This document shows, piece by piece, positions 7,534 through 60,850 of a stretch of DNA of 64,000 bases (the stretch's first letter is position 1; each line of letters opens with the position of its first letter). Below the pieces are notes generated by a model. It made no database searches. It had not been told where the DNA came from and was given only the letters and a program-made list of their open reading frames with translations. The stretch is from Escherichia coli O157:H7 (GTDB lineage Bacteria > Pseudomonadota > Gammaproteobacteria > Enterobacterales > Enterobacteriaceae), in the NCBI RefSeq assembly GCF_013167455.1, contig NZ_CP038328.1; one strand, written 5' to 3'. The position numbers and the translations under genes are program-made.

Positions 7534-7540
7534 TATTTTA

Positions 7541-7570
7541 ACGCCCGATAATATTCTTATTGGGCGTTTT
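7541..7570. terminator. Hairpin AACGCCCGATAA...TTATTGGGCGTT at the convergent ddlA/yaiZ junction
   Basis: Inverted repeat read directly after the ddlA stop; overlaps the yaiZ 3' end. Confidence 0.45.
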
Positions 7571-7769
7571 CAGTTTCTTCATCGCGACGACGAATAATCA
7601 ACCCCGCCAGCCAGAAACTAATCACCCACGTCACCAGACCGACGGCATAGGTCTGCCAACCTTTTGCTTCAAATCCCAGTAACCCCACCACGCCATTAAG
7701 AATGAATATAAGGCCAATGGCGAACGCATAGTAGTGCCAGTCACGGCGGATTTTTACAGGCAGATTCAT
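7557..7769 (-). CDS. yaiZ: Small inner-membrane protein YaiZ (70 aa; listed ORF is longer, start at MNLPVKIRRDW preferred)
   Basis: Two predicted TM helices; matches remembered YaiZ. Confidence 0.7.
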   Translation of the reverse strand: MNLPVKIRRDWHYYAFAIGLIFILNGVVGLLGFEAKGWQTYAVGLVTWVISFWLAGLIIRRRDEETENAQ

Positions 7770-8028
7770 GGCTGCTCCGTTAACGAAAAACAACATCCTT
7801 GCATATTCTGCAACAACCGTCTGTGGTGTAGACAACATTTTCGCAATTGTTAATAAATTTAACTTAAAGTTGCTATTTTGTGACTCGCAACGAAGATTCA
7901 CGCTTCGGGAATATTCCCAACATCAATTTACCATGATTCTGATATTGACAATCTAAATGACCTGTCAGACTTGCCATAAGCCGCTGGTATCACACCAGAA
8001 GAGAAGCAGATGACTTCCGGAGGTTTTT

Positions 8029-8337
8029 ATGGCTGATTTCACCCTGTCAAAATCGCTGTTTAGCGGAAAATATCGCAATGCCTCTTCAACGCCTGGCAAC
8101 ATTGCCTATGCGTTGTTTGTGCTGTTTTGCTTTTGGGCTGGGGCGCAATTGCTGAACCTGTTAGTGCATGCGCCCGGCGTCTATGAGCGTTTAATGCAGG
8201 TCCAGGAAACAGGTCGCCCACGGGTGGAAATTGGTTTAGGTGTCGGCACCATTTTCGGGCTGATCCCGTTTTTAGTAGGCTGCCTCATTTTTGCAGTGGT
8301 GGCGCTATGGCTGCACTGGCGACATCGCCGCCAGTAA
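8029..8337 (+). CDS. yaiY: Inner-membrane protein YaiY (102 aa)
   Basis: Two hydrophobic helices, ends RHRRQ; synteny with yaiZ and yaiW. Confidence 0.8.
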
Positions 8338-8395
8338 GATTTACGTTGCCAGATACGGCCTAAAACGCCTTATCTGGCATGACATTCCTGTTTGT

Positions 8396-9490
8396 TCACT
8401 GTTTCATACAACGCGCCCGCCGTTCGTCTACGCGCTTCGCAAACCAGGCCGTAGTCAGGTTGCGGGTGATTTTCGGGCTTTCCAGTTGAATGCCAGGCAA
8501 CATTTCGCGGGGGAGTGATTTACCCGTTTTCGCTTCGGCAAGTTGATAAACTTTCTTGTACAGCGCCGTCTCCTCAAAAGAGAAGCTGTCACCTTTCTCT
8601 AGCTGACGACGAATTTCGCTGTCGCTCATCCCCAGTTTTGCCGCCAGTTTGCGCGTTGCCAGTTCGGTTTTCCCGGGTTCTTTACTGTCGTAACGAATTA
8701 AATCACCGTCCAGTGCCAGCTTCACGCCGCTGGCCTTACTGACCGCGTTCTGAAACGCGGCATTACGGCTGGCGTACCAGCCAGCGTTAAAATCAGCAAA
8801 ACGGTATATCGGTGCGCTATAACTGGCGGGATAATTCAGTAAATGGTAAGTACCAAACCACAACCCGCCGCGGCGACTAAAGACTTCCTGACGGACTGTA
8901 CCGTCCATTTTCCACGGATACCCTTTGGTATGCTGTTCGGCAAAAGCAATGCTGACCTGCATCGGCCCACCGGTGCGCACCGGATTAAGCGAACCAAACA
9001 ACGTCTGCCCCATTGGCACCATGCTGATCAGATCGTCAAAAATCCCGCTCAATTGCTTTTCTGTACGCACCGAATCTAACCGTTCGCTATAACTTTTGCC
9101 GTTTGGCGATTTGATTTTTAGCGCAGTATGAACCAGAAAAGCAGGAATGTGCATCCGTTCAGCACGACGGTCAATCTCTTGCCAGGCGATCTTGCTTAAG
9201 CCCGGAACGGCCGGATCTGCCTGATAATTTGACTCCTGCTGCGCCACCGCCAGCACCGAGCAGACGTTTTCCAGCGTCGGTGCCAGCCCCTGACTTTCAA
9301 AGGTGGTGGCGAGATCTTTCGCCCAGGCATCGCGGTCTTTCACGCTCGCAGGCATCTTCTGCCGCACCACGCTAGCCACATCTATCGCTTTTTCGCCCTT
9401 TTTCAACGGCTGTGGCGCCTGACTGCTACACCCCGCTAAAACCAGAACCGCCAAAAATGAAAGCGAAGACAGATGATTGACTCGCGACAT
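8396..9490 (-). CDS. yaiW: Lipoprotein YaiW (364 aa), co-transcribed downstream of sbmA
   Basis: Lipobox LAGC in the signal peptide; 12-bp gap after sbmA. Confidence 0.85.
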   Translation of the reverse strand: MSRVNHLSSLSFLAVLVLAGCSSQAPQPLKKGEKAIDVASVVRQKMPASVKDRDAWAKDLATTFESQGLAPTLENVCSVLAVAQQESNYQADPAVPGLSKIAWQEIDRRAERMHIPAFLVHTALKIKSPNGKSYSERLDSVRTEKQLSGIFDDLISMVPMGQTLFGSLNPVRTGGPMQVSIAFAEQHTKGYPWKMDGTVRQEVFSRRGGLWFGTYHLLNYPASYSAPIYRFADFNAGWYASRNAAFQNAVSKASGVKLALDGDLIRYDSKEPGKTELATRKLAAKLGMSDSEIRRQLEKGDSFSFEETALYKKVYQLAEAKTGKSLPREMLPGIQLESPKITRNLTTAWFAKRVDERRARCMKQ

Positions 9491-9502
9491 TACTTCTCCT
9501 TT

Positions 9503-10723
9503 TTAGCTCAAGGTATGGGTTACTTCCTGAATTTTGTCACCATCCAGCTCATGTTCAAAGCTGCGCAGACGTTTGTAGATAGACATCAACTCAACCAGTG
9601 TGGTCCATGAGTTAATCAGGTACTGGAAAGCACCGCGAACCTGACCAAAAACGTTGGTAATCTGCGTCATCAGGCCGAGCGTAATCGTACCGGCAACAAT
9701 TGACGGAAACAGCAAGAACAAACCGAAAACGTTATCGACCTGCAAATAGAGAATGCGAGCGATGTTGAAATACATATAGTGAAAATAGAGGCGGAAATAG
9801 TTTTTCCGTACGGCGCTAAACAGCTCGCGTACCGTTGGCGGCGTCGCGCGCGTGGCATCGTCTTCACCATAAACCAGCTCTTTACGGTAGGCAGCCTCTA
9901 CACGCTGGTTTTTAAACTCCAGCCCCGGCAGTTTGATCCCTACCACTGCCAGCAATCCGGTCCCCATCAGCGACCAGACGATAGCGGCAATCACCAGACC
10001 ATACGGAATGTGCCCGATAATCGGCAGCTCCGGCACATGCGCGGAGAGCGTTACCAACACCGGCAGGAAGGCGATCAACGTCATGATGGCGTTGATAAAA
10101 CTGACACCCATATTCTCCAGCGTTGAAGCAAAACGCATGGTGTCTTCCTGCACACGCTGTGCGGCGCCTTCGATATGACGCAGTTGTTGCCAGTTCGCCA
10201 TGTAATATTCGTTCATCGCCGTACGCCAGCGGAACACGTAGTGACTGACAAAGAAGTTATTCAGCACACTGATCACTACCGCGATCAGCGCAATCCCCAG
10301 AAAGACGCCCACTTCGCGGTAAAATTGTTCGATAGTGACTTTATGCGGCGAACTTAGCGCGGTTTGAATCAGATCATAGAACGGTGCATACCAGGCGTTG
10401 ACGGCAACCCCAACTTCCACCAAAAACCAGGTGACGAAGATGATCAGTGCAGTACCGAGTATTGACCAGTATTGCCAACGGTGCGGGCTGTAGATAAACC
10501 AGAACAATGCAAAAAGTCCTACGCAAACAATGTAGTAAGCGTAAAAAATCAGGAAATCCAACGACCAGAAACGCGCGGCGCTAATCGGGATCTGCCCGGA
10601 AGCGCCGGTGATACGCGCCACCCAGTCCCCCCCACCGGCTTGCCAGAAGATAACGGCAATCAATGCCCAAACAAAGGCCGAGAGAAAAAACGTTCCCGGC
10701 TTTGGGAAAAAAGACTTAAACAT
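9503..10723 (-). CDS. sbmA: Peptide/antimicrobial-peptide transporter SbmA (406 aa; start at [10 protein letters not shown])
   Basis: Polytopic membrane protein matching remembered SbmA. Confidence 0.9.
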
Positions 10724-11074
10724 ATGCACTCCTGCTAACTTCTTATCGTTTTAACAACTGCTGTGTATTAACCGCATGACCGCTACAAAGCGTCAGCCAA
10801 ATGAAACCGCCCATTGTGACTCATAGCAAGGCGCTTAGTTCGCCAGCCTGGCCATAAGAATTGTTTCGACGGATTTCACAAACCAAAGATTGTTTACATA
10901 AGCGGATTAACACGCGCAGGATCACAAATGCAGGCATTGGTGAGCAGGAAAAAGATCGTGTTTACGCGCCGTTACGTTTTTAACACTATTATTGCACTAA
11001 TTCGCCCTTTGCAATCCATCAATGAGTAGTATAAATACGCTCAGTTACCTTCATTCAATTTATGGACACCACCG

Positions 11075-12232
11075 TTGAAACGTAGTCTGCTTTTTTCTGC
11101 CGTGCTGTGTGCGGCGTCATTGACCTCCGTCCATGCGGCGCAGCCGATCACTGAACCGGAGTTTGCCTCTGATATTGTCGATCGTTATGCCGATCATATT
11201 TTTTACGGCAGCGGTGCCACGGGGATGGCGCTGGTTGTTATCGACGGTAACCAGCGCGTCTTTCGCAGTTATGGCGAAACGCGACCTGGTAATAACGTTC
11301 GCCCGCAGCTGGATTCGGTCGTGCGTATTGCTTCCCTCACCAAGCTAATGACCAGTGAGATGCTGGTGAAATTGCTCGACCAGGGGACCGTGAAGTTAAA
11401 CGATCCGCTAAGTAAATATGCTCCGCCAGGCGCACGCGTGCCAACCTACAATGGGACGCCCATTACGCTGGTCAATCTGGCAACCCATACCAGCGCCCTG
11501 CCCCGTGAACAGCCCGGTGGCGCGGCACATCGTCCGGTGTTTGTCTGGCCAACGCGCGAGCAACGCTGGAAATACCTTTCTACGGCGAAGCTGAAAGCCG
11601 CGCCAGGCAGTCAGGCGGCGTACTCTAACCTTGCGTTCGACCTGCTGGCAGATGCACTGGCGAATGCGTCCGGCAAGCCTTATACCCAGTTGTTTGAAGA
11701 GCAGATTACCCGTCCATTGGGGATGAAAGACACCACCTACACTCCCTCACCGGATCAGTGCCGCCGTTTAATGGTTGCTGAGCGCGGTGCCAGTCCGTGC
11801 AATAACACGCTGGCGGCAATTGGCAGCGGCGGCGTCTATTCCACGCCTGGCGATATGATGCGCTGGATGCAGCAGTATTTGTCATCTGATTTTTATCAGC
11901 GCAGTAACCAGGCAGATCGCATGCAGACGTTGATTTATCAGCGCGCGCAGTTTACGAAAGTGATTGGCATGGATGTCCCCGGCAAAGCGGATGCGCTTGG
12001 TTTAGGCTGGGTATATATGGCCCCGAAAGAGGGTCGTCCGGGGATTATTCAGAAGACAGGTGGTGGTGGCGGTTTCATTACCTATATGGCGATGATCCCG
12101 CAGAAGAATATTGGCGCGTTTGTGGTGGTCACTCGTTCGCCGTTGACGCGCTTTAAAAATATGAGCGATGGCATCAATGATCTGGTGACCGAGCTAAGCG
12201 GGAATAAACCGTTGGTTATCCCCGCATCCTGA
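11075..12232 (+). CDS. ampH: Penicillin-binding protein AmpH (class C beta-lactamase fold), apparent TTG start
   Basis: 385 aa with signal peptide and SLTK (SxxK) active-site motif; first codon in the sequence is TTG. Confidence 0.9.
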   Translation: MKRSLLFSAVLCAASLTSVHAAQPITEPEFASDIVDRYADHIFYGSGATGMALVVIDGNQRVFRSYGETRPGNNVRPQLDSVVRIASLTKLMTSEMLVKLLDQGTVKLNDPLSKYAPPGARVPTYNGTPITLVNLATHTSALPREQPGGAAHRPVFVWPTREQRWKYLSTAKLKAAPGSQAAYSNLAFDLLADALANASGKPYTQLFEEQITRPLGMKDTTYTPSPDQCRRLMVAERGASPCNNTLAAIGSGGVYSTPGDMMRWMQQYLSSDFYQRSNQADRMQTLIYQRAQFTKVIGMDVPGKADALGLGWVYMAPKEGRPGIIQKTGGGGGFITYMAMIPQKNIGAFVVVTRSPLTRFKNMSDGINDLVTELSGNKPLVIPAS

Positions 12233-31507: not shown

Positions 31508-31516
31508 TAATAGTGC

Positions 31517-31620
31517 ACGACTGCCGGATGCGGCGTGAACGCCTTATCCGCCTACATTTCGCCCGCAGGCCGTAGGCATGATAAGACGCGCATAGCGTCG
31601 CATCAGGCATCTGCGCACGA
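31517..31620. repeat. REP-type palindromic elements downstream of frmB
   Basis: GCCGGATGCGGCGTGAACGCCTTATCCG and GGCATGATAAGACGCG...GCATCAGGC motifs read directly. Confidence 0.75.
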
Positions 31621-31631
31621 CTTATCTATGT

Positions 31632-32171
31632 TTACCACATCAAATCATCAGGCACTTTGAAGTCGGCATACGGGTCGTCTTCATCCTGCTCTTCGGCACT
31701 GAGCGCGCTGTGCAACACAATACTGCTGGCATCACGCTGAGCAATTTTATCGGCAACGCTGGCGGGAATAATGGCGTATTCACCTTCGCTATTGTTATCG
31801 ACCAACAAGCGGGCAATCGCCAGACGACCATTAATCAACTGCGCCTGTGTGAGCTTATCGACAAAAATCTTCTTAATCAGATTGCCATCAGTGAAGTTAA
31901 AACCAATATCGCCATTGGCAATGGTGATCCGGTTCATTTCAATAAGCTGCTTCACCTGAGCTTTATATTCTTTCGCCAACGCCGCTTGTTTTTGCTGTTC
32001 GCTAAGCTGTTTATCACGCTCAAGCTGTGCCTTTTTATTTTCTTCTACCGCCGCCCGAGCTTCACGCGCCTGAACGCGCGATTTTTTCGCCGTTCTCTCG
32101 ACCTTCGCCGCTTTTTTGCTGGTGACTAATCCTGCTTTGAGCAACTGCTCTTGTAAGGTAAGTTTTGCCAT
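31632..32171 (-). CDS. yaiL: YaiL (DUF2058-like basic, K/A/E-rich protein), 179 aa; start at MAKLTLQEQ preferred
   Basis: Translation matches remembered YaiL; listed ORF has a 39-codon upstream extension. Confidence 0.75.
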   Translation of the reverse strand: MAKLTLQEQLLKAGLVTSKKAAKVERTAKKSRVQAREARAAVEENKKAQLERDKQLSEQQKQAALAKEYKAQVKQLIEMNRITIANGDIGFNFTDGNLIKKIFVDKLTQAQLINGRLAIARLLVDNNSEGEYAIIPASVADKIAQRDASSIVLHSALSAEEQDEDDPYADFKVPDDLMW

Positions 32172-32272
32172 CTTTGTTTCCAAACCCGCTGAATAATTTT
32201 TAGCGAGTATACCTGTAAACGCCGTGGGTGTATTGGGGGCAAGTCCCTTTCGCCCCTGCTTAATAAGGCGCG

Positions 32273-33484
32273 TCAGGCATCGGCACACGGCTGCATTCTT
32301 AATCTCCGACTCATCAAAATAAACACCGCCAACCCAGCAACAAGAATACCCGGTGCAGAAGCGGCCATTACGCCGACCGTGCCAGTGCCTAATGCCAGCA
32401 TTTTCCCGGCCAGTAACGGACCGCTCATAGCCCCCAGACGCCCTACCGCCACGGCTGTTCCCACACCTGTTGCGCGGATCTGCGAACTGTAAAACAACGG
32501 TGCCAGGGCATACAAAACGCTTTGCCCACCTGTCGCAAACAACCCCGCGACAAATCCCGCCAGCAACATACCGTTAAATGACGACACCGTTCCAAGCGCC
32601 AGCAGCGAAGCTAACATGCCGCTATAAATCAGTAGCGACATGGTTACTGGACGCAGCTTATCCATCAATGCGCCCAACATTAACGTCCCGCTCGCCGCAC
32701 CCATTTGCAGTGCAAACATCACCCCTGCCGCCTGCGATGGCTGGAATCCTTGCTCCACCAAAAGCAGCGGTAGCCAGTTGATCAACATGTAAACCACCAG
32801 CAGAGTGAAGAAATAACACAGCCACAGCAGCAGCGTCGCGGTTGCCGTTTCTGGCGCAAATAACGCACGCAGTGGTGGCGCAGCCTGTTTTTCGCCAGCG
32901 AAAACCGCCGACTCCGGCAGCCAGCGCATTAATAGCGGCACCAGAATCAACGGCACCACACCACCTACCCAAAACACCGTTTGCCATGCTAAGTTTGCCC
33001 CCGCGAAACCCAGTGTCGCCGCCAGCGCCGCGCCAATGGGAACACCGCAATACATCAGGCTCACTGCCGTCCCACGAAAACGTGGACCCGCGGCTTCAGA
33101 CGTCAGGGCGATAAGATTCGGCAACGCCGCCCCCAGCCCGACACCGGTCATCAGCCGCGCAAAGACCAGTGAGGGGAAATCCCAGGCAATCGCCGTTGCC
33201 AGCGAGAACAAACCAAACAGCGCAACTGAGCCAATCAAAATGCGCTTGCGACCATAACGGTCCGCCAGCATTCCGCCAACCAACGCGCCGGGTAGTAAAC
33301 CGAGTATTCCGGCGCTGAATATCCAGCCCATTTGCATTTTATCGAGTGCGAAAGCCTGGGCGATGCCACCCGCCGCAATGCCAGCCGCCTGAAGATCCAG
33401 CCCTTCCATCAGAGCGACCAAAAAACAAAGCCCGATGGTCAGCATCAGGCGGGATGAAGATGATGAAGGGGTACGAGTCGACAT
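32273..33484 (-). CDS. mhpT: 3-(3-hydroxyphenyl)propionate MFS transporter (403 aa; start at MSTRTPSSSS)
   Basis: 12-TM MFS protein at the end of the mhp cluster. Confidence 0.85.
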   Translation of the reverse strand: MSTRTPSSSSSRLMLTIGLCFLVALMEGLDLQAAGIAAGGIAQAFALDKMQMGWIFSAGILGLLPGALVGGMLADRYGRKRILIGSVALFGLFSLATAIAWDFPSLVFARLMTGVGLGAALPNLIALTSEAAGPRFRGTAVSLMYCGVPIGAALAATLGFAGANLAWQTVFWVGGVVPLILVPLLMRWLPESAVFAGEKQAAPPLRALFAPETATATLLLWLCYFFTLLVVYMLINWLPLLLVEQGFQPSQAAGVMFALQMGAASGTLMLGALMDKLRPVTMSLLIYSGMLASLLALGTVSSFNGMLLAGFVAGLFATGGQSVLYALAPLFYSSQIRATGVGTAVAVGRLGAMSGPLLAGKMLALGTGTVGVMAASAPGILVAGLAVFILMSRRLRMQPCADA

Positions 33485-33555
33485 AAGATGAACCTCATTG
33501 CGTGTGCAGGTGAATCGCGACTGATACATTGCCAGCCGCGTAATCAGAACTATTT

Positions 33556-33625
33556 AATGACTGCCTACGGGCGAAATGTAGACCGGATAAGGCGTTCACG
33601 CCGCATCCGGCAGTCGTGCTGGGAT
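33556..33625. repeat. REP-type element between mhpE and mhpT; reverse complement of the element at about 31517-31565
   Basis: CGGGCGAAATGTAGACCGGATAAGGCGTTCACGCCGCATCCGGCAGTC read directly. Confidence 0.75.
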
Positions 33626-33659
33626 GGGCATACAAAATGCACGTTCTCGGCAGTCAATA

Positions 33660-34669
33660 TTATTTGTTGTTGCGCAGATCCAGCGCCACGTCGACGATCA
33701 TATCCTCCTGGCCGCCAACCATCCGGCGTTTGCCCAGCTCAACGAGAATATCCACCGCGCTTAAGCCATAACGCGCCGCCGCCGTTTCACAGTGACGCAG
33801 GAAGCTGGAGTAAACACCAGCGTATCCCAGCGCCAGCGTTTCGCGATCGACTCGTACCGGTCGATCCTGCAACGGACGCACCAGGTCGTCAGCAGCATCC
33901 ATTAACGCATAGAGATCGGCCCCATGCTGCCAACCCAGTTTATCCACGGCGGCAATAAATACTTCCAGCGGCGCGTTACCTGCGCCCGCTCCCATTCCCG
34001 CGAGGCTGGCGTCGATTCGGTCGCAGCCCTCTTCCACCGCCGCGATAGAGTTCGCCACGCCAAGACTCAGGTTATGGTGAGCGTGCATGCCGGTTTGCGT
34101 TTCTGGTTTCAGCACTGCTTTCAGGGCGCGGAAACGGTCACGGATATCGCTCATGTTCATCGCACCGCCAGAATCCACCACATAAATACAGGTCGCACCG
34201 TAGCCTTCCATCAGCTTTGCCTGCTTTGCGAGATTCTCCGGCGTGGTCATATGGCTCATCATCAGAAAACCAACGGTGTCCATTCCGAGCTCGCGGGCAT
34301 ACTGAATATGCTGGGCGGAAACATCAGCTTCGGTACAGTGCGTAGCCACACGAACCACCCGCGCGCCAGCCTGCCAGGCATTTTTCAGATCGTGAATAGT
34401 GCCGATTCCTGGCAGCAACAACGTCGCGATTTTGGCGTGCTTCACCACATCCGCCGCTGCTTCAATCCATTCAAGGTCGCTATGTGCGCCGAAACCATAG
34501 TTAAAGCTGGACCCCTGCAAACCGTCGCCGTGGGCCACTTCAATCGAATCCACGCGGGCATCGTCCAGTGCTTTGGCAATCTGGCGAACGTTTTCCAGCG
34601 AATACTGATGACGAATGGCGTGCATACCGTCACGCAACGTGACGTCCGAGATATAAAGTTTTTTACCGT

Positions 34670-34673
<4 letters not shown>
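33660..34673 (-). CDS. mhpE: 4-hydroxy-2-oxovalerate aldolase
   Basis: 337 aa, recognised MhpE sequence. Confidence 0.95.
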
Positions 34674-36435
<1,762 letters not shown>

Positions 36436-37302
36436 TTAAGCACGTGCGAGGAAATTCAGCACCAGTTGATTGAAAGCGTCGGCATGTTCCCACTGCGCCC
36501 AATGCCCACAGTCGCGGAAGATATGCAGTTCAGAACCGGCAATGCCGGACAGCAGACGCAGACCCGCATCCATCGGCACAAAGCGGTCGTTGCGCCCCCA
36601 GACAATCAGGGTTTGCGCTTTGATTTCCGCCAGACGTGGGCCAAAATCCGGGAACTGTTTCGGATTAGCTTCCAGGCTCTTAACGAAGTTTTCCAGGTGA
36701 TCGCGGCGCGACAGCATATTATTCAGGCGCGCTTCAAACAGGGCGTCGGTCAAATCGCTGGTATCAAAAACGAAGATATCCATCATCAGCTTCAGGTTTT
36801 CGATAGTCGGCTGACGATAAAGCTGATTCAGTCGCTTAATACCTTCGGTTGGCATCGGCGTAAACAAACTCATGCCGCCCGTACCGCCGCCCATCAGCAC
36901 CAGTTTGCCGACGCGCTCCGGCCAGTTAAGGGTGAACGCCACAGAACTATGGCCACCCATCGAGTTGCCCAGCAGGTGGATTTTGGCGATATCCAGTTGA
37001 TCCACCACGCTTTTCAGGATTCGTGCATTAAGATCCGATCGCGAACCACTATTAACGATCGAATCGCTCTTGCCCCAACCCGGACAATCCAGCAGGATCA
37101 CCCGATAGCCCGCCTCTACCAGCGGATCGATATTGCGGCTGAAGTTCGCCCAGCCAGTAGCACCCGGGCCGGAACCATGCAGCAGGACAACGGTTTCGTC
37201 GCCTTGTCCGCAGTCATTAAAATGGATGCGCAGCGTTTTACCCGCTTCTTCTACATTCAGAAAACGGCTGGTGGCGGCTTCGGTTTGTGGCTGATAACTC
37301 AT
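36436..37302 (-). CDS. mhpC: 2-hydroxy-6-oxononadienedioate hydrolase (alpha/beta hydrolase), 288 aa; start at [10 protein letters not shown]
   Basis: GNSMGG nucleophile elbow; the longer listed ORF would overlap mhpB. Confidence 0.9.
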
Positions 37303-37319
37303 CATCTTCTCCTGCATAT

Positions 37320-38264
37320 TCAGTTCTCTGTTCTGGCGCTTAACGAGCCAAATCCGGCAATCCACTCCGGGATTGGGCGGTAATAACGCCCTTCGCTACG
37401 CCAGTTGCCAAATGCAGAAATAGCGGCAAAAGCGGCGACCCAGGTTTTGATTTCATGTGTCGACTTTCCGGCAATGGCGGAAAGCTCTTCGTTACTGACG
37501 GCATCCAGTTCCTGTATGCGTCCCTGCTCCAGCAAAGTCATGAACTGGTTATCCCAAATCGGGTTGAGCGGATGCAGAGTTCTCTGATCCTCAACAAACT
37601 TCTCAGCGGCGCTAATCACCCGTTGCTGACGCAATTCGCGCTCACTGGCGGGTAAATCTTTCCCGCTCCCCAACAGGCGGTCGCGCATATGGGCATCGGC
37701 TTTCGCCAGTTCGGGCACCGGCGGCTGATGGGAAAGCCCACCGGAACCTAGGAACAGCACGCGTTTATTGAGAGTGCTGGTGAAACGTCCAATGGCTTCA
37801 CCCAACATGCGGGTACGCTGGAAACCGGGCAGCGGCGTGGCGACACCGTTGATGAACACAGGCAGAACTGGCACCTTATCCAGCCCACCGAGCAGGAACT
37901 CCAGCGGCTGGGCGAACCCGTGGTCCACCTGCATACAGTAAGAAACGGCAAGATCGATCCCGCTCTTCATGACGGCATGCGCACAGGCCTCCGCCAGCTC
38001 CACAGGCACGGGCAGCTCTCCTGCCGCACTGCCGAAATCACCAATTGCCGTCGCTCCAACGCCTAAACAGAACGGTGGCATCACGTCATAGAAAAAGCCG
38101 TTGTAGTGATCTGGCGCAAACAGCACCACCAGTTCAGGGGAGAAAGCCGCAATACGCTCGCGGGCGCTGGCAATCACGCCATTGACCTCATCGAGTACCT
38201 CTTGTGCCGGGTCGACATACCCCACCAGCGGCGAGTGGGAAAGACAATGAAGATAAGCGTGCAT
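37320..38264 (-). CDS. mhpB: 2,3-dihydroxyphenylpropionate 1,2-dioxygenase (extradiol)
   Basis: 314 aa, recognised MhpB sequence. Confidence 0.9.
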
Positions 38265-38265
38265 A

Positions 38266-39930
38266 TCAGGCTACCTTTTCGACAGAAACGTCGGCATCAG
38301 GGCGGGTCAGCGTCATCACCGACGCCAGTTTATTCAGGGTCTTGCCCAGTGTTTGCGGAATGGCGGTGGCGGCAACAAAGCGATCCGGGCGCATCACCAC
38401 CAGCGAAGCATTGTGTTGCGCGAACCAGCTACGCAGGCGACCTTGCGTATCCCCCACGCGTAGTACGCCGTCGTGGTTATCCTGTGCGGTATGAATTTGC
38501 ACTTCCGGCACCACCTGAATGAAGCGTGTGCTCAACGCGCGCCACTGCTGGATTTGCTCGTCGCTCATCCCCCACAGTGGATTGCATCCCCAGCCAATTA
38601 CCGCGAAGTTCGCGCCGATCGCGTTATCGAGCAGCGTCACGTCGCCGTTTTCCAGCGTGACTTTCGGCTGAATAAACATCTTGCCGACCGGAGAGTGCTT
38701 CGCTTCGCCCTCACGCACCAGCGCACCGCCGTAATATTGCGGCATCGGCTTGAAGCGCATTTCGAGGAAGTAGCGTTTTACTGGCGGCAGATAATTCAGC
38801 AGCCAGGAAACGCCGTCACGTAACGTACCCTGCCAGCGTTTCGGCGGAGCCAGCACGTTGCCCGCCGTCACGGACAGGTCAATCATCGCTTTGGCGTGAT
38901 CGCGACGTTCTTGTTGATAGGTATCGAGCAGCGCATCGCGGGCTTTCCCCTGGATAACCAACGCCAGTTTCCATGCGAGGTTAAAGGCGTCGCGCATACC
39001 ACTGTTATAGCCCTGCCCCTGCCATACCGGCATGATGTGCGCGGCATCGCCCGCCAGCAGTACGCGATCAATACGGAAACGTTGCGCCAGTCGCGCGTTG
39101 TGGGTGTAGACACGCTGGCGAATCAATTCAACATTGTCCGGATTAGGCAGCACTTTGCTTAACAGCTTGCGCATATTTTGCGGCTCACGCAGCTGTTCTT
39201 CGGTTTCTCCCGGCATCACCATAAATTCAAAGCGACGTACCGCATGAGGTAGCGCGGCAGAAACATACGGGCGCACCGGATCGCAACACAAATAGATATG
39301 CGGCGTACTTAACGGATCGTTGGCGATATCTACCACAATCCACTGATTTGGCGCAGTTTTACCTTCAAACGGCACATTCAGGGTGCGACGGACAAAACTT
39401 GCCCCACCATCACAGGCCACCAGCCACTGGGCTTTGACTATTTCCCGCAGCCCTTCTGCCGTTTTCAGGTGCAAGGTCACTTCGTCATCTTGCTGACTGA
39501 AGGCCTCCAGCTCGCGGGAAAACAAGCAGCGCACATTCGGAAAACGCGACACCCCTTCCAGCATCACCGCATCGACCTGCGGCTGAATAAAGGCGTTACG
39601 GCGCGGCCAGCCAAATTCATCGGTCATTGGCTGAATATCAGCAAAACAGCGGCCCTTCGGGGTGAGAAAACGCATCGCGTGCCACGGCGTAGTATGCGGC
39701 AGAACATTATCGACCAGGCCGACCGACTGCATGGTGCGCAGCGCCTCGTCATCAATACCAATCGCACGCGGGTAGTCGATCAACTTATCGAGTTTCTCCA
39801 CCACCAGCACGTCAATGCCCATCTGGCCGAGATAGTTCGCCATCATCAGCCCGACCGGACCGGCACCAGCGATCGCCACCTGAACGCTATGGTTAACAGC
39901 AGGCTGGATGTCAGGGTGTTGTATTGCCAT
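38266..39930 (-). CDS. mhpA: 3-(3-hydroxyphenyl)propionate hydroxylase (FAD monooxygenase)
   Basis: 554 aa with GAGPVG FAD-binding motif. Confidence 0.9.
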
Positions 39931-40071
39931 TTCAGTACCTCACGACTCGGACAAAATGCCGTTGCGCGCACAGTACAGCGCAACTTATTTTGTTAAAAAT
40001 ATGTAAATGATTTTTTATTGTGCGCTCAGTATAGAAAGGGTGTTTTCGGCTACAATCAAAACATGCCCGAA

Positions 40072-40088
40072 TGTGCACCAGGTGCACA
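40072..40088. promoter_or_regulatory. Near-perfect palindrome TGTGCACCAGGTGCACA in the mhpR-mhpA divergent region, a candidate MhpR/IclR-type operator
   Basis: Read directly; a second inverted repeat GTTGCGCGCACAGTACAGCGCAAC lies at about 39961-39984. Confidence 0.35.
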
Positions 40089-40120
40089 ACGTTGTTTTAA
40101 CTATAGAAATGTCAATTAAT

Positions 40121-40954
40121 ATGCAGAACAATGAGCAGACGGAATACAAAACCGTGCGCGGCTTAACCCGCGGTCTAATGTTATTAAATATGTTAAATAA
40201 ACTTGACGGCGGTGCCAGCGTCGGGCTGCTGGCGGAACTCAGCGGCCTGCATCGCACCACTGTGCGGCGACTGCTGGAGACGCTGCAGGAAGAGGGATAT
40301 GTCCGGCGTAGTCCCTCCGATGATAGTTTTCGTCTGACCATCAAAGTGCGGCAATTAAGCGAAGGATTTCGTGACGAACAGTGGATTTCTGCACTGGCGG
40401 CCCCACTGCTGGGCGATCTGTTGCGCGAAGTGGTATGGCCGACAGATGTGTCCACGCTGGATGTTGATGCAATGGTGGTACGCGAAACCACTCACCGTTT
40501 CAGCCGCTTATCCTTTCACCGGGCAATGGTCGGGCGGCGTTTACCGCTTCTGAAAACCGCCTCGGGCCTGACCTGGCTGGCCTTTTGCCCGGAACAAGAA
40601 CGCAAGGAATTAATCGAGATGTTAGCCTCCCGCCCCGGTGATGACTATCAACTGGCACGAGAACCGTTAAAGCTGGAAGCCATTCTGGCGCGCGCGCGCA
40701 AAGAGGGTTACGGACAGAACTACCGCGGCTGGGATCAGGAGGAGAAGATCGCCTCTATCGCCGTACCGCTGCGCAGTGAACAACGGGTGATTGGCTGTCT
40801 GAATCTGGTGTATATGGCGAGCGCAATGACCATCGAACAGGCAGCGGAAAAGCATCTTCCGGCACTACAACGGGTAGCAAAACAGATCGAAGAAGGGGTT
40901 GAATCGCAGGCTATTCTGGTGGCCGGACGGCGAAGCGGCGTGCATTTACGCTAG
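40121..40954 (+). CDS. mhpR: IclR-family activator of the mhp operon (277 aa; start at MQNNEQTEY)
   Basis: IclR-type HTH plus effector domain, divergent from mhpA. Confidence 0.9.
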   Translation: MQNNEQTEYKTVRGLTRGLMLLNMLNKLDGGASVGLLAELSGLHRTTVRRLLETLQEEGYVRRSPSDDSFRLTIKVRQLSEGFRDEQWISALAAPLLGDLLREVVWPTDVSTLDVDAMVVRETTHRFSRLSFHRAMVGRRLPLLKTASGLTWLAFCPEQERKELIEMLASRPGDDYQLAREPLKLEAILARARKEGYGQNYRGWDQEEKIASIAVPLRSEQRVIGCLNLVYMASAMTIEQAAEKHLPALQRVAKQIEEGVESQAILVAGRRSGVHLR

Positions 40955-41068
40955 TTACGCCAATGTGTAATTTGGCCCATTCTCATCGTTATTCGCCCAT
41001 TTGCCCACATGCACAGTACGGGCTGCACGCTACGCTAATGACATCAATACTGTGATGTGGAGCAAATC

Positions 41069-41845
41069 ATGAAAATTACGCAAATTCGTAATGCCACCCA
41101 AATTATCCAATACGCTGGCAAAACATTTCTTATCGACCCGTTACTCGCGCCTAAAGGAAGTTATCCGGGTTTTGCCGGAACGGCACGCGCAGAAATCCGC
41201 AATCCAACGGTAGAATTACCGTGCGATTTAACAACGTTACTCAACGTTGACGCCCTAATCGTGACCCATTTGCATGAAGATCACTGGGACGAAACAGCCT
41301 CCCGCGTCGTCCCTAAAGATAAACTGATTTATGTGCAAAATGAGCAAGATGCTGAATCACTGAATAAACAAGGATTTACGCATCTTACCGTACTTACCGA
41401 CGAGACTAAATTTGGCGATATTACTCTGCATAAAACGACAGGGCAGCACGGCTCCGATCGCACCTATGCCGACCCGGCGATGGCGAAGCGTTTAGGCGCA
41501 GCTTGCGGCGTTGTTTTCCAGCACCCGACAGAGAAAACGCTCTATCTGGCTGGCGATACCCTCTGGCGTGACGACGTCGAGGCTACAATGCTAACTTTCC
41601 AACCAGAAGTGGTTGTGTTGAATGCCGGATTTGCGCATGTTCTGGGGCATGGCGCGATAATTATGGGAGCAGAAGATATTCTCAAAACACATTTTACCCT
41701 CCCAGAAGCGCAAATTATCGCGACACATATGGAGGCCGTAAACCACTGTTTGCTGACGCGTGATGCGCTCAAGGAATACGCCAGAGATAATCAAATTATC
41801 GAATTTGTGAACGTACCAGAAGATGGTGAAACGTTGACATTCTAA
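41069..41845 (+). CDS. Metallo-beta-lactamase-fold hydrolase (about 258 aa), function unknown
   Basis: HxHxDH zinc motif THLHEDHWDE; GGAG RBS 6 nt upstream of the ATG. Confidence 0.75.
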   Translation: MKITQIRNATQIIQYAGKTFLIDPLLAPKGSYPGFAGTARAEIRNPTVELPCDLTTLLNVDALIVTHLHEDHWDETASRVVPKDKLIYVQNEQDAESLNKQGFTHLTVLTDETKFGDITLHKTTGQHGSDRTYADPAMAKRLGAACGVVFQHPTEKTLYLAGDTLWRDDVEATMLTFQPEVVVLNAGFAHVLGHGAIIMGAEDILKTHFTLPEAQIIATHMEAVNHCLLTRDALKEYARDNQIIEFVNVPEDGETLTF

Positions 41846-41864
41846 TTCGGAGATAAAGAGTGTT

Positions 41865-42818
41865 ATGCGCCCGCTAACTGTTGCCATTATCGCCGTTGCC
41901 GGTTTTAGTCCTTTTCACCTTTCCGTACCGTTTATCGTGTTTAGTGAAAAGATGGCGGAGAAAAAACGCTTTCACGTGATTATTTGCGCTGAAAAGCCGG
42001 GAAACGTGGACTCTGCCGATGGGTTTTCCGTAACCGCCACCCATGACTATACCGCAGTCATCCAGGCAGATATTGTGATAATTCCTTACTGGGGAACCAT
42101 TACACAAAAACCGCCACAAAAACTGCTGGAAGCCTTAACGACCGCACGGGATAACGGCGCACAGATTGTCGGGCTTTGCCTGGGCACGTTTGTGCTCGGC
42201 TATGCAGGTTTACTGAAAAATAAGCGTGCCGCCACGCACTGGGAGTTCGAGCGTGAATTTCAGGCACGTTTTCCACAAACACATCTGGATATTAACGCGT
42301 TGTACGTAGACGATGACGGCATTATTACCTCTGCCGGTACTGCCGCGGCGCTGGATTGCTGTTTGTATATTGTTCGGCAACATTTTGGCAGCGACTATGC
42401 TAACCATATTGCCCGACGGATGGTCGTACCGCCATATCGCACCGGCGGTCAGGCGCAGTTTATTGAGCAACCGGTGCCGAAAAATACCCATGATGAACGC
42501 ATAAACCTCCTGCTGGATTACCTGCGGCAAAACATTGCGCAACAGCATGATCTCGACTCGCTGGCGCAGCGAGTAATGATGAGTCGCCGCACATTAACTC
42601 GCCATTTTATGAAAGCGACCGGTTCGAGTATCGCCGAATGGCTCATTACTGAACGCTTACGCCGTAGCCAGGAACTGTTGGGATCCAGTCAGTTGCCCGT
42701 TGAGCGGATAGCGGCTGAGGTGGGTTTTCTCTCACCTGTGACCTGGCGTCAGCATTTTAAATCTCACTTCGGCGTCAGCCCCGCCGAATGGCGCAAAACC
42801 TTTCGCGGTATGGCATGA
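41865..42818 (+). CDS. GlxA-type AraC-family transcriptional regulator (DJ-1/PfpI-like N-terminal domain plus AraC HTH), 317 aa
   Basis: N-terminal class-I glutamine-amidotransferase-like domain with conserved Cys (GLCLGTF) and C-terminal AraC HTH. Confidence 0.8.
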   Translation: MRPLTVAIIAVAGFSPFHLSVPFIVFSEKMAEKKRFHVIICAEKPGNVDSADGFSVTATHDYTAVIQADIVIIPYWGTITQKPPQKLLEALTTARDNGAQIVGLCLGTFVLGYAGLLKNKRAATHWEFEREFQARFPQTHLDINALYVDDDGIITSAGTAAALDCCLYIVRQHFGSDYANHIARRMVVPPYRTGGQAQFIEQPVPKNTHDERINLLLDYLRQNIAQQHDLDSLAQRVMMSRRTLTRHFMKATGSSIAEWLITERLRRSQELLGSSQLPVERIAAEVGFLSPVTWRQHFKSHFGVSPAEWRKTFRGMA

Positions 42819-42819
42819 T
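42791..42819 (+). promoter_or_regulatory. lacI promoter (-35 GCGCAA, -10 CATGAT) lying inside the 3' end of the upstream AraC-family gene
   Basis: Sequence GCGCAAAACCTTTCGCGGTATGGCATGATAGCGCCCGGAAGAGAGTCAATTCAGGGTGGTGAATGTG matches the remembered K-12 lacI promoter. Confidence 0.8.
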
Positions 42820-42854
42820 AGCGCCCGGAAGAGAGTCAATTCAGGGTGGTGAAT

Positions 42855-43937
42855 GTGAAACCAGTAACGCTATACGATGTCGCAGAGTATGCCGGTGTCT
42901 CTTATCAGACCGTTTCCCGCGTGGTGAATCAGGCCAGCCACGTTTCTGCGAAAACGCGGGAAAAAGTGGAAGCGGCGATGGCGGAGCTGAATTACATTCC
43001 CAACCGCGTGGCACAACAACTGGCGGGGAAACAGTCGTTGCTGATTGGCGTTGCCACCTCCAGTCTGGCCCTGCACGCGCCGTCGCAAATTGTCGCGGCG
43101 ATTAAATCTCGCGCCGATCAACTGGGTGCCAGCGTGGTGGTGTCGATGGTAGAACGAAGCGGCGTCGAAGCCTGTAAAGCGGCAGTGCACAATCTTCTCG
43201 CGCAACGCGTCAGTGGGCTGATCATTAACTATCCGCTGGATGACCAGGATGCCATTGCTGTGGAAGCTGCCTGCGCTAATGTTCCGGCGTTATTTCTTGA
43301 TGTCTCTGACCAGACTCCCATCAACAGTATTATTTTCTCCCATGAAGACGGTACGCGACTGGGCGTGGAGCATCTGGTCGCATTGGGTCACCAGCAAATC
43401 GCGCTGTTAGCGGGCCCATTAAGTTCTGTCTCGGCGCGTCTGCGTCTGGCGGGCTGGCATAAATATCTCACTCGCAATCAAATTCAGCCGATAGCGGAAC
43501 GGGAGGGCGACTGGAGTGCCATGTCCGGTTTTCAACAAACCATGCAAATGCTAAATGAGGGCATCGTTCCCACTGCGATGCTGGTTGCCAACGATCAGAT
43601 GGCGCTGGGCGCAATGCGCGCCATTACCGAGTCCGGGTTGCGCGTTGGTGCGGATATCTCGGTAGTGGGATACGACGATACCGAAGACAGCTCGTGTTAT
43701 ATCCCGCCGTTAACCACCATCAAACAGGATTTTCGCCTGCTGGGGCAAACCAGCGTGGACCGCTTGCTGCAACTCTCTCAGGGCCAGGCGGTGAAGGGCA
43801 ATCAGCTGTTGCCCGTCTCACTGGTGAAAAGAAAAACCACCCTGGCGCCCAAGACGCAAACCGCTTCTCCCCGCGCGTTGGCCGATTCATTAATGCAGCT
43901 GGCACGACAAGTTTCCCGACTGGAAAGCGGGCAGTGA
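42855..43937 (+). CDS. lacI: Lactose repressor, GTG start
   Basis: VKPVTLYDVAEYAGVSYQTVSRV... 360 aa. Confidence 0.95.
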   Translation: MKPVTLYDVAEYAGVSYQTVSRVVNQASHVSAKTREKVEAAMAELNYIPNRVAQQLAGKQSLLIGVATSSLALHAPSQIVAAIKSRADQLGASVVVSMVERSGVEACKAAVHNLLAQRVSGLIINYPLDDQDAIAVEAACANVPALFLDVSDQTPINSIIFSHEDGTRLGVEHLVALGHQQIALLAGPLSSVSARLRLAGWHKYLTRNQIQPIAEREGDWSAMSGFQQTMQMLNEGIVPTAMLVANDQMALGAMRAITESGLRVGADISVVGYDDTEDSSCYIPPLTTIKQDFRLLGQTSVDRLLQLSQGQAVKGNQLLPVSLVKRKTTLAPKTQTASPRALADSLMQLARQVSRLESGQ

Positions 43938-43950
43938 GCGCAACGCAATT
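43930..43950 (+). promoter_or_regulatory. lac auxiliary operator O3 (GGCAGTGAGCGCAACGCAATT) overlapping the lacI 3' end
   Basis: Matches the K-12 O3 sequence. Confidence 0.8.
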
Positions 43951-43972
43951 AATGTGAGTCAGCTCACTCATT
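43950..43972 (+). promoter_or_regulatory. CAP/CRP binding site of the lac promoter (TAATGTGAGTCAGCTCACTCATT); one central substitution relative to K-12
   Basis: Read directly; K-12 has GAGTTAGCTC. Confidence 0.8.
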
Positions 43973-43985
43973 AGGCACCCCACGC

Positions 43986-44015
43986 TTTACACTCTATGCG
44001 TCCGGCTCGTATGTT
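43986..44015 (+). promoter_or_regulatory. lac promoter -35 TTTACA and -10 TATGTT
   Basis: Hexamers with 18-bp spacing as in K-12 Plac; the spacer carries two substitutions relative to K-12. Confidence 0.85.
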
Positions 44016-44021
44016 GTGTGA

Positions 44022-47134
<3,113 letters not shown>

Positions 47135-47140
47135 TAATAA

Positions 47141-48439
<1,299 letters not shown>

Positions 48440-48448
48440 GCAATCAAT

Positions 48449-48478
48449 GTCGGATGCGGCGCGAGCGCCTTATCCGAC
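48449..48478. repeat. REP element between lacY and lacA
   Basis: GTCGGATGCGGCGCGAGCGCCTTATCCGAC read directly. Confidence 0.8.
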
Positions 48479-48504
48479 CAACATATCATAACGGAATGAT
48501 CGCA

Positions 48505-49116
48505 ATGAACATGTCGATGACAGAAAGAATAAAAGCAGGCAAGCTATTTACCGATATGTGCGAAGGCTTACCTGAAAAAAGACTTCGTAGAAAAACGTTA
48601 ATGTATGAGTTTAATCACTCGCATCCATCAGAAGTTGATAAAAGAGAAAGCCTGATTAAAGAAATGTTTGCCACGGTAGGGGAAAACGCCTGGGTAGAAC
48701 CCCCCGTCTATTTCTCTTACGGTTCCAACATCCATATAGGCCGCAATTTTTATGCAAATTTCAATTTAACCATTGTCGATGACTACACGGTAACAATCGG
48801 TGATAACGTATTGATTGCACCCAACGTTACTCTTTCCGTTACGGGACACCCTGTACACCATGAATTGAGAAAAAACGGTGAGATGTACTCTTTTCCGATA
48901 ACGATTGGCAATAACGTCTGGATCGGAAGTCATGTGGTTATTAATCCAGGCGTCACCATTGGGGATAATTCTGTTATTGGCGCGGGTAGTATCGTCACAA
49001 AAGACATTCCACCAAACGTCGTGGCGGCTGGCGTTCCTTGTCGGGTTATTCGCGAAATAAACGACCGGGATAAGCAATATTATTTCAGAGATTACAAAGT
49101 TGAATCGTCAGTTTAA
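48505..49116 (+). CDS. lacA: Galactoside O-acetyltransferase (203 aa; start at MNMSMTER)
   Basis: Hexapeptide-repeat acetyltransferase; listed ORF extends upstream through the REP element. Confidence 0.9.
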   Translation: MNMSMTERIKAGKLFTDMCEGLPEKRLRRKTLMYEFNHSHPSEVDKRESLIKEMFATVGENAWVEPPVYFSYGSNIHIGRNFYANFNLTIVDDYTVTIGDNVLIAPNVTLSVTGHPVHHELRKNGEMYSFPITIGNNVWIGSHVVINPGVTIGDNSVIGAGSIVTKDIPPNVVAAGVPCRVIREINDRDKQYYFRDYKVESSV

Positions 49117-52588: not shown

Positions 52589-52670
52589 TGCCTGATGCGT
52601 TACGCTTATCAGGCCTACGAGTTCAGTGCTCTACGTAGGCCTGATAAGGCGTTCAAGCCGCATCCGGCAT
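52589..52670. repeat. REP elements between convergent cynR and codA
   Basis: GCCTGATGCGTTACGCTTATCAGGCCTAC and GTAGGCCTGATAAGGCGTTCAAGCCGCATCCGGC read directly. Confidence 0.8.
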
Positions 52671-55384: not shown

Positions 55385-56128
55385 AACAGTGGGTAGGCAT
55401 GATAAGACGCGTCAGCGTCGCATCAGGCAACTACGCACGGTGTCGGATGCGGCGCGAGCGCCTTATCCGACCTACGGTTCAGGCCTGTAGGCATGATAAG
55501 ACGCGCCTGCGTCGTATCAGGCATCTGCGCACGGTGTCGGATGCGGCGCGAGCGCCTTATCCGACCTACGGTTCAGGCCTGTAGGCATGATAAGACGCAT
55601 CAGCGTCGCATCAGGCACTGAGCACGGTGTCGGATGCGGTGCGAGCGCCTTATCCGACCTACGGTTCAGGCCTGTAGGCATGATAAGACGCATCAGCGTC
55701 GCATCAGGCATCTGCGCATGGTGTCGGATGCGGCGCGAGCGCCTTATCCGACCTACGGTTCAGGCCTGTAGGCATGATAAGACGCGCCTGCGTCGCATCA
55801 GGCATCGGCGCATGGTGTCGAATGCGGCGCGAGCGCCTTATCCGACCTACGGTTCAGGCCTGTAGGCATGATAAGACGCATCAGCGTCGCATCAGGCATC
55901 GGCGCATGGTGTCGAATGCGGTGCGAGCGCCTTATCCGACCTACGGTTCAGGCCTGTAGGCATGATAAGACGCATCAGCGTCGCATCAGGCATCTGCGCA
56001 TGGTGTCGGATGCGGCGCGAGCGCCTTATCCGACCTACGGTTCAGGCCTGTAGGCATGATAAGACGCGCCAGCGTCGCATCAGGCATCTGCGCACAACTG
56101 TCGGATGCGCCACGCGACGCATCCGACA
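55385..56128. repeat. Tandem array (about 8 copies) of a roughly 94-bp composite REP/BIME-type unit between the codB promoter and the prpE 3' end
   Basis: The motif TAGGCATGATAAGACGC recurs at about 55394, 55488, 55582, 55675, 55769, 55863, 55957 and 56051, each followed by GTCGGATGCGGCGCGAGCGCCTTATCCGACCTACGGTTCAGGCCTG. Confidence 0.9.
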
Positions 56129-60755: not shown

Positions 60756-60850
60756 TGTCGGATGCGACGCCATGCGTCTTATCCGACCTACAGTTCACCC
60801 CGTAGGCCTGATAAGTCGCGTCAGCGGCGCATCAGGCATCGGTTGTCGAA
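60756..60850. repeat. REP elements in the prpB-prpC intergenic region
   Basis: GTCGGATGCGACGCCATGCGTCTTATCCGACCTAC and GTAGGCCTGATAAGTCGCGTCAGCGGCGCATCAGGC read directly. Confidence 0.8.

Follow-up and report, generated by a model that had tools for sequence, protein, structure and literature searches.

Organization of the locus

The DNA analysed here is a 64,000-nt stretch from Escherichia coli O157:H7 (RefSeq assembly GCF_013167455.1, contig NZ_CP038328.1), referred to below as the window, and the subject is the promoter for lacI (the gene encoding the lac repressor), which in the window lies within the 3' end of the upstream gene ovrA, one of the two genes of O-island 19 (OI-19). Only two open reading frames (ORFs) are present between mhpR and lacI, a metallo-beta-lactamase (MBL)-fold hydrolase gene and ovrA, together called the module, with intergenic gaps of 19 nt between the MBL gene and ovrA and 36 nt between ovrA and lacI. 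Window positions 39900-43100 (3.2 kb) are 100% identical to E. coli O157:H7 chromosomes. The features of the locus, with annotations of the Prokaryotic Genome Annotation Pipeline (PGAP) where stated, are as follows.

40121-40954, + strand: mhpR, whose IclR-family product activates the mhp operon (from the PGAP annotation of L003, an identical O157 locus)
40953-42784, + strand: O-island 19 segment without counterpart in K-12-type genomes, 1,832 nt (junction alignments, 5 carriers and 5 K-12-type genomes)
41069-41845, + strand: MBL-fold metallo-hydrolase gene, z0443, 258 aa (PGAP; Pfam Lactamase_B_2 on orthologues)
41865-42818, + strand: ovrA (z0442), GlxA-type AraC-family regulator, 317 aa (ORF and translation, PGAP name, Pfam, NCBIfam)
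42785-42818, + strand: ovrA stub kept in K-12, last base of codon 307, codons 308-317 (EWRKTFRGMA) and stop, 34 nt (alignment, script-checked coordinates)
42791-42796, + strand: lacI -35 hexamer GCGCAA, in ovrA codons Trp-Arg-Lys, identical to K-12
42811-42819, + strand: TGgCATGAT, -10 hexamer CATGAT (42814-42819) with preceding extended-10-like TG (script-checked coordinates)
42827-42854, + strand: lacI 5' leader, identical to K-12
42855-43937, + strand: lacI, GTG start
44060-47134: lacZ
47186-48439: lacY
48454-49116: lacA

The lacI promoter within the ovrA tail

The 317-aa ORF ends in ...SPAEWRKTFRGMA followed by the stop codon (over a longer stretch, ...FGVSPAEWRKTFRGMA and stop), and GAATGGCGCAAAACCTTTCGCGGTATGGCATGA spans 42786-42818. 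Over 84 nt, from 42785 (CGAATGGCGC...) to 42868, no difference separates the window from MG1655 (NC_000913.3, locus L002), and upstream of 42785 the two diverge completely; these 84 nt comprise the 34-nt ovrA end and 50 nt beyond it, reaching the first 14 nt of lacI. The initial annotation, made from the letters of the window, had recognized the final codons of this AraC-family ORF as the K-12 lacI promoter region, and the identity bears this out. Its further proposal that the -10 overlaps the stop codon also holds, as the -10 hexamer spans the Ala and stop codons, with the ovrA stop TGA (42816-42818) falling inside it; the spacer between the hexamers is 17 nt (42797-42813). The leader begins at 42827 with GGAAGAGAG, and G 42827, 28 nt before the GTG, is presumably the lacI transcription start, by homology with the K-12 literature. 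The GCGCAA and CATGAT hexamers we take to be the lacI promoter as defined in the K-12 experiments of Calos (1978) and Steege (1977).

The hexamer placement is consistent with two engineered restriction sites, NheI over the -10 (made by an A-to-C change) and PvuI a few bp upstream of the -35 (PMC7049694), and with the location of the lacIq -35 in a study in which the lacI promoter is intrinsically very weak (PMC8674398); a CRP footprint at -6 to +22 of lacI has been reported in a preprint. Of 19 regions upstream of lacI that were compared in Escherichia and Citrobacter, all 19 keep the motif TGGCAT(G/C)ATAGCGC. We infer that the promoter would be active in the O157 context as in K-12. With gaps of only 19 and 36 nt, and with no terminator-like site found on the + strand between ovrA and lacI (terminator scan, 40800-43000), transcription of the MBL gene and ovrA probably also reads through into lacI in module carriers.

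A C/T polymorphism at 42806 in the promoter spacer (TTTCGC/TGG), synonymous for an Arg codon in ovrA, is common to module carriers (R32, 2017-02-2CC) and K-12-type genomes (S4, GPEC60, GE3), and its crossing of the presence/absence boundary indicates recombination or an old polymorphism.

Deletion junctions and states of the locus in E. coli

In K-12-type genomes 40953-42784 (1,832 nt), comprising the MBL gene and ovrA codons 1-306, are deleted and replaced by an 8-nt filler, GACACCAT. The junction was the same in 5 diverse genomes, reading ...CATTTACG(C/T)T, then the filler, then CGAATGG..., and in module carriers ...CATTTACGCT is followed by AGTTACGCC... across the left boundary, and ...CCCCGC by CGAATGG... 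across the right. Alignment with the MG1655 mhpR-lacI region, by which the initial annotation had proposed to locate breakpoints, thus gave 40953 and 42784, though the filler makes the junction unclean. The filler matches neither flank, and with it the mhpR stop is re-created, from TAG (40952-40954) in carriers to TGA in K-12-type genomes. Because the junction is shared and idiosyncratic, its sequence points to one deletion event that later spread. No repeat pairing the two module boundaries was found, and no mobility genes, integrase or tRNA were found at the module.

Two candidates bearing on the origin of the junction were set aside. The C. sedlakii sequence just 3' of mhpR (GTTGACCGGATCG) resembles the filler at 10 of 13 positions, which may be chance, and other Citrobacter loci were of no help; CGCCAATG on the left and CGCCGAATG on the right, taken as microhomology, do not predict the observed junction.

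The K-12 junction also builds TTGACA from the final T of mhpR and the GACA of the filler; this hexamer, absent from the window, lies 32 nt upstream of the -10. By arithmetic on the junction sequence, a 15-bp deletion would bring this TTGACA to the ideal 17-nt spacing. The lacIq1 allele is, we assume, that 15-bp deletion, with TTGACA moved into -35 register. If so, the strongest lacI up-promoter would be made from an ancient deletion scar, by a route closed to O157-type genomes.

Across 5,426 complete E. coli genomes, the full module was present in 435, the K-12-type junction in 4,397 (~81%), and the ovrA segment from 42720 onward without the full module in 487 (922-435). The initial annotation had the two-gene module lost in the K-12 lineage rather than gained in O157: the polarity it proposed is retained, and its assignment to K-12 is not, as the same junction is found in 4,397 of the 5,426 genomes. 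O-island 19 behaves as a segment lost from ~90% of sequenced E. coli.

A different truncation is present in Nissle 1917-type genomes, with the following window coordinates.

42720-42818, + strand: ovrA codons 286-317 and stop, 99 nt, the sole part of ovrA left (E. coli Nissle 1917 [EcN] locus L001 6001-6099, BLAST)
32237-42719: segment lost, 10,483 nt, mhpT through mhpR, the MBL gene and ovrA codons 1-285 (BLAST)

BLAST of the EcN locus against the window matched L001 5277-5999 to 31515-32236 and L001 6001 onward to 42720 onward. PGAP flags the 99-nt piece, which is joined to the yaiL side, as a GlxA-family pseudogene, incomplete and missing its N-terminus; the 34-nt K-12 stub is too short for annotation. 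Nissle-type strains are without the whole mhp (3-hydroxyphenylpropionate) catabolic cluster, and the same single deletion truncated ovrA.

Relationships among carriers were gauged by local divergence. Module diversity reaches 2.4%, with at least four haplotype groups 0.7-2.4% apart, and lies inside the 1-12% mosaic range of the flanks within Escherichia. A module-specific drop in divergence was considered as a sign of transfer and rejected as not diagnostic, the profile being that of the general mosaic. Two RefSeq 'E. coli' with the full module, R32_14_1F (L087) and 2017-02-2CC (L088), differ from all other sampled E. coli by 5-6% in lacI and ~4-5% in mhpR, and represent a deep lineage or else carry a segment that was introgressed.

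Conservation of the OvrA C-terminus

The ovrA product, named 'OI-19-encoded virulence regulator OvrA' in newer PGAP annotation, has an N-terminal DJ-1/PfpI-like domain (PF01965, Pfam DJ-1_PfpI; TIGR01383 matches residues 43-183) and a C-terminal AraC-type double helix-turn-helix (HTH; Pfam HTH_18/HTH_AraC on the protein cluster and orthologues). NCBIfam AraC, RhaS, SoxS and MarA models match residues ~205-314, with HTH matches reaching residues 312-315. Assignment as an FtrA equivalog (NF006902) was rejected, since the score of 323.9 bits is below the curated cut-off of 425, making OvrA a relative and not an equivalog.

Full-length orthologues are 316-322 aa; those of Citrobacter share 73-80% identity with OvrA, and those of Leclercia, Enterobacter and Huaxiibacter 67-69%. 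In 11 aligned orthologues (67-80% identity) the C-terminus FGVSPAEWRKTFRG is conserved, with ...FGVSP(A/T)EWRKTF(R/Q) invariant or nearly so and variation confined to the last few residues. The conserved part takes in eight of the ten residues of the K-12 stub, EWRKTFRG, and the match with K-12 is accordingly one of orthology and not of chance. The MBL gene adjoins the ovrA orthologue in Citrobacter, Leclercia, Kluyvera and Erwinia, and Leclercia ovrA has no linkage to lac and no adjoining methyltransferase gene of the kind described below for Citrobacter. Judged by these domain matches and alignments, the 34 nt kept by K-12 encode the conserved end of the predicted OvrA DNA-binding domain. 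Conservation of the stub residues even in genera without lac linkage is not explained by an insertion into a K-12-like ancestor, which would have had to meet these codons ready-made in intergenic DNA.

Citrobacter and unclassified Escherichia loci

In Citrobacter sedlakii NBRC 105722 (L018), tblastn of the fetched loci gave the order mhpA (- strand), mhpR, MBL gene, ovrA, lacI, lacZ, lacY. C. rodentium (L097) has the part from the MBL gene through ovrA to lacIZY, with a 33-nt ovrA-lacI gap. Where ovrA abuts lacI in this order, the gap is 33-36 nt and the -10 lies over the stop codon region: in C. sedlakii the -10 is CATGAT and the stop TGA, the promoter overlapping the ovrA end in the E. coli register, and C. 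rodentium has CATCAT in the same register, with the TGA lost and the ORF one codon longer, to a TAG. The full gene order was also found, via the protein cluster, in 'unclassified Escherichia' (GCA_005781255.1 and GCA_004745355.1; L101-L104), in which mhpR and lacI differ by 5-7% from their E. coli counterparts. Synonymous divergence (dS) separating E. coli from Citrobacter is saturated (>1) in module and flanks alike; therefore the Citrobacter loci are not recent transfers.

Most species of the C. freundii complex carry a - strand S-adenosylmethionine (SAM)-methyltransferase gene between ovrA and lacI (L004, L007, L009-L016, L019 and L020; locus positions ~6950-7570). It is present in 12 of the 15 lacI-bearing Citrobacter loci and is flanked by two ~22-nt copies of the ovrA end. 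In these loci ovrA itself ends in ...TGGCGCAAAACYTTTCGCGG plus a new short tail, and a likeness to the ovrA end of E. coli persists in the ~40 nt before lacI (in MGH106, AATGACGAAAAACCTTTCATGGTGTGGCATGATAGCGCG, matching E. coli at 30 of 36 positions by manual count), the conserved ovrA codons thus occurring twice, on either side of the insert. The pre-lacI copy is read as a relic of earlier direct abutment that would have been kept as the lacI promoter.

Three further Citrobacter loci were exceptional. In C. youngae ATCC 29220 (L017), ~110 nt of the methyltransferase insert are left. In Citrobacter freundii GCA_013786205.1 (L006), 7744-11832 is a single ORF of 1,362 aa with LacI and LacZ domains, which looks like a natural lacI-lacZ fusion, formed by a deletion of the end of lacI together with the control region of lac. 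In Citrobacter amalonaticus (L095, 5001-9147), a 322-aa ovrA orthologue (with a longer tail, ...FQGVTQADSE) is followed directly by lacZ, with lacI and lacY absent from the locus.

Origin of the arrangement and alternative explanations

The order mhpR/MBL/ovrA/lacIZY(A), with the lacI promoter embedded in ovrA, was very probably ancestral in Escherichia and Citrobacter, with the K-12 and Nissle states derived from it by deletion. At the same locus the K-12 remnant runs collinear with the intact gene's 3' end and keeps its reading frame (its last 10 residues and stop), as a deletion relic should, and these residues are conserved across genera, which agrees with the proposal of the initial annotation that the sequence upstream of lacI in K-12 is the surviving 3' stub of this gene. 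Independent truncations differ in extent, with 34 nt left in K-12, 99 nt in Nissle, and the relic copies in the C. freundii complex. The comparison with other genomes, likewise suggested at the outset as a way of settling polarity, favours deletion through the gene order in C. sedlakii, C. rodentium and 'unclassified Escherichia' and through the longer Nissle remnant. Judged from the alignments, the K-12 stub is a deletion relic whether O157 kept or regained the module.

The proposed history begins with an ancestral locus in which the sigma-70 promoter of lacI would have been written in the last ten codons of ovrA. A single illegitimate deletion of 1,832 nt with an 8-nt filler would then have produced the arrangement of most E. 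coli, K-12 included, and a second, independent deletion of 10.5 kb (Nissle-type) would have left 99 nt in place; insertion of a methyltransferase gene would have parted ovrA from lacI in the C. freundii complex while the relic codons stayed. RNA polymerase would act through the weak -35 and the TG-extended -10, set apart by the 17-nt spacer, to give a lacI mRNA with a 28-nt leader, as in K-12. Selection for lacI expression may have set the deletion end-points, the 34 promoter nt presumably being spared thereby, as longer deletions would abolish LacI synthesis, give constitutive lac expression and be lost.

Several results weigh against this history. No other named Escherichia species was returned by the scan of species representatives, and for that reason polarity within the genus rests on one 'unclassified Escherichia' lineage and Citrobacter. 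Between Escherichia lineages, module dS is 0.05-0.11, vs 0.14-0.31 for mhpR and lacI, and sliding-window divergence gave a general recombination mosaic with no module-specific pattern; homologous recombination could have brought the module back to O157 or to other lineages. The filler and its sub-words are absent from window positions 39000-44500 on both strands, save one 7-mer in lacI, and no clear microhomology was found at either the K-12-type or the Nissle-type deletion junction. A generic consensus promoter scan of 40800-43000 missed the lacI promoter because of its distance from consensus (2/6 and 4/6 matches), which is in keeping with its known low-level activity.

The alternative that survives best, which we consider unlikely, shares the ancestral arrangement and the relic stub and differs in that the O157 ancestor had the deletion and then regained the module by homologous recombination from another Escherichia that carried it. 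The mosaic divergence along the locus, with its sharp change near the mhpR 3' end, and the low module dS relative to the flanks would both fit a module that circulates in a smaller sub-population and moves by recombination; however, nothing requires a regain, module divergence is similar to that of mhpA, and the carriers fall into the haplotype groups described above, at least four in number and up to 2.4% apart.

Somewhat less probable still is that the embedded promoter is irrelevant in carriers and that most lacI expression there comes from an MBL-ovrA-lacI transcript, in which lacI stands third. The short gaps, the lack of a + strand terminator-like site before lacI and the weakness of the promoter are compatible with this; against it, TGGCAT(G/C)ATAGCGC is kept in all 19 regions, including non-coding cases without an upstream co-directional gene, and the K-12 promoter, of identical sequence, is active by itself.

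We think it improbable that the abutment of ovrA and lacI is secondary, with the methyltransferase gene ancestral and lost from E. coli, C. sedlakii and C. rodentium by recombination between short repeats. The gene's presence in 12 of the 15 lacI-bearing Citrobacter loci, with ~22-nt ovrA-end copies on either side, would suit such a history, and C. youngae ATCC 29220 shows that secondary loss is possible. The lacI-proximal copy, however, holds ovrA codons (WRKTF) as non-coding DNA and therefore descends from a state in which the true end of ovrA abutted lacI; abutment is moreover found in three separate lineages in the same register, and Leclercia ovrA is without a methyltransferase neighbour.

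That O-island 19 is an insertion acquired by the O157 lineage, with the K-12 arrangement ancestral and the ovrA ORF ending by chance in old lacI-upstream DNA, is scarcely credible: an 'O island' is by definition DNA present in EDL933 and absent from K-12, this one is reviewed with virulence-adding islands, carriers are few (435 of 5,426) and no other named Escherichia representative was returned, but the 10 codons past the supposed insertion point encode residues conserved in genera without lac linkage, the segment is found at the same locus in C. sedlakii, is also present in 'unclassified Escherichia', and in both C. rodentium and the C. freundii complex adjoins lacIZY, a longer remnant is found in Nissle-type strains, the segment looks ordinary in GC and is without boundary repeats, integrase or tRNA, and saturated dS (>1) argues against recent transfer from O157-like E. 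coli.

With the ancestral arrangement preferred over these alternatives, a broader reading seems to us somewhat favoured: that the lacI promoter has been intragenic in ovrA since before the Escherichia/Citrobacter split and has set the end-points of at least three rearrangements (K-12-type, Nissle-type and methyltransferase insertion), that OI-19 is ancestral core DNA and OvrA an old resident regulator co-opted by the acquired locus of enterocyte effacement (LEE), and that LacI dosage may be coupled to ovrA by read-through.

Relation to known elements

O-island 19 and OvrA of enterohaemorrhagic E. coli (EHEC) O157:H7 are reportedly the subject of a 2020 paper by Liu et al. in J Infect Dis. O-island 19 has been described as 1,834 bp with two genes, z0442 (ovrA) and z0443 (PMC8565820), the same genes as in the window; OvrA binds the LEE1 promoter and activates ler, and the island is reviewed among those adding virulence functions (PMC8565820; PMC10877973). 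In that literature it is treated as an O157 island, and lacI, the promoter overlap and the Citrobacter synteny are unmentioned there.

The promoter in the window is the same DNA as the K-12 lacI promoter (-35, 17-nt spacer, -10, start site and GTG), and differs in that its -35, spacer and most of its -10 are coding DNA of an intact ovrA, whereas in K-12 they are non-coding and follow mhpR. The PGAP pseudogene of Nissle-type genomes has the same ovrA 3' end (window 42720-42818) and differs from the K-12 stub in its length (99 nt against 34 nt), its position on the yaiL side and the loss of the whole mhp cluster. Promoters in the 3' end of an upstream gene are a common bacterial layout, which this one resembles in having its -35 and -10 in coding DNA and a stop codon inside the -10; here, unlike in the common case, the layout is traceable through several independent rearrangements that kept the promoter codons.

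Literature searches (lacI promoter with mhpR; z0442/z0443; lac operon with Citrobacter synteny) returned no paper in which ovrA is tied to the lacI promoter. Each component was already known (promoter, gene, island and 99-nt pseudogene annotation), and the link between the promoter and the ovrA tail was not found in the searchable literature. What is added concerns the history of the locus only, with no new mechanism and no new kind of system. On the history preferred here, the vector-borne 'lacI promoter' would carry the last ten codons of a regulator gene gone from K-12, and an origin in ovrA would explain both the weakness of the promoter and its near-absent upstream region. O-island 19 would have been lost by most E. 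coli and not gained by O157, which would reframe the role of OvrA in virulence. The mhpR-MBL-ovrA-lacIZY order in common with C. sedlakii fits vertical descent of the lac locus, not a recent import.

Other features of the window

The remaining mhp operon, including mhpA, lies on the - strand to the left of mhpR, and the ORF list places the mechanical start of mhpR at 40007. GC content is 47.7% in the MBL gene, 51.8% in ovrA, 45.9% in lacY and 42.7% in lacA, with 52.8% for the whole window.

A tandem array at 55393-56109 contains 7.6 copies of a 94-nt unit (94% matches), with a consensus resembling repetitive extragenic palindromic (REP)/bacterial interspersed mosaic element (BIME) palindromic units. 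Single copies related to this unit lie at 33560-33626, 52589-52670 and 60756-60840 of the window, and in Nissle 1917 related copies are found between fghA and yaiL and downstream of lacY.

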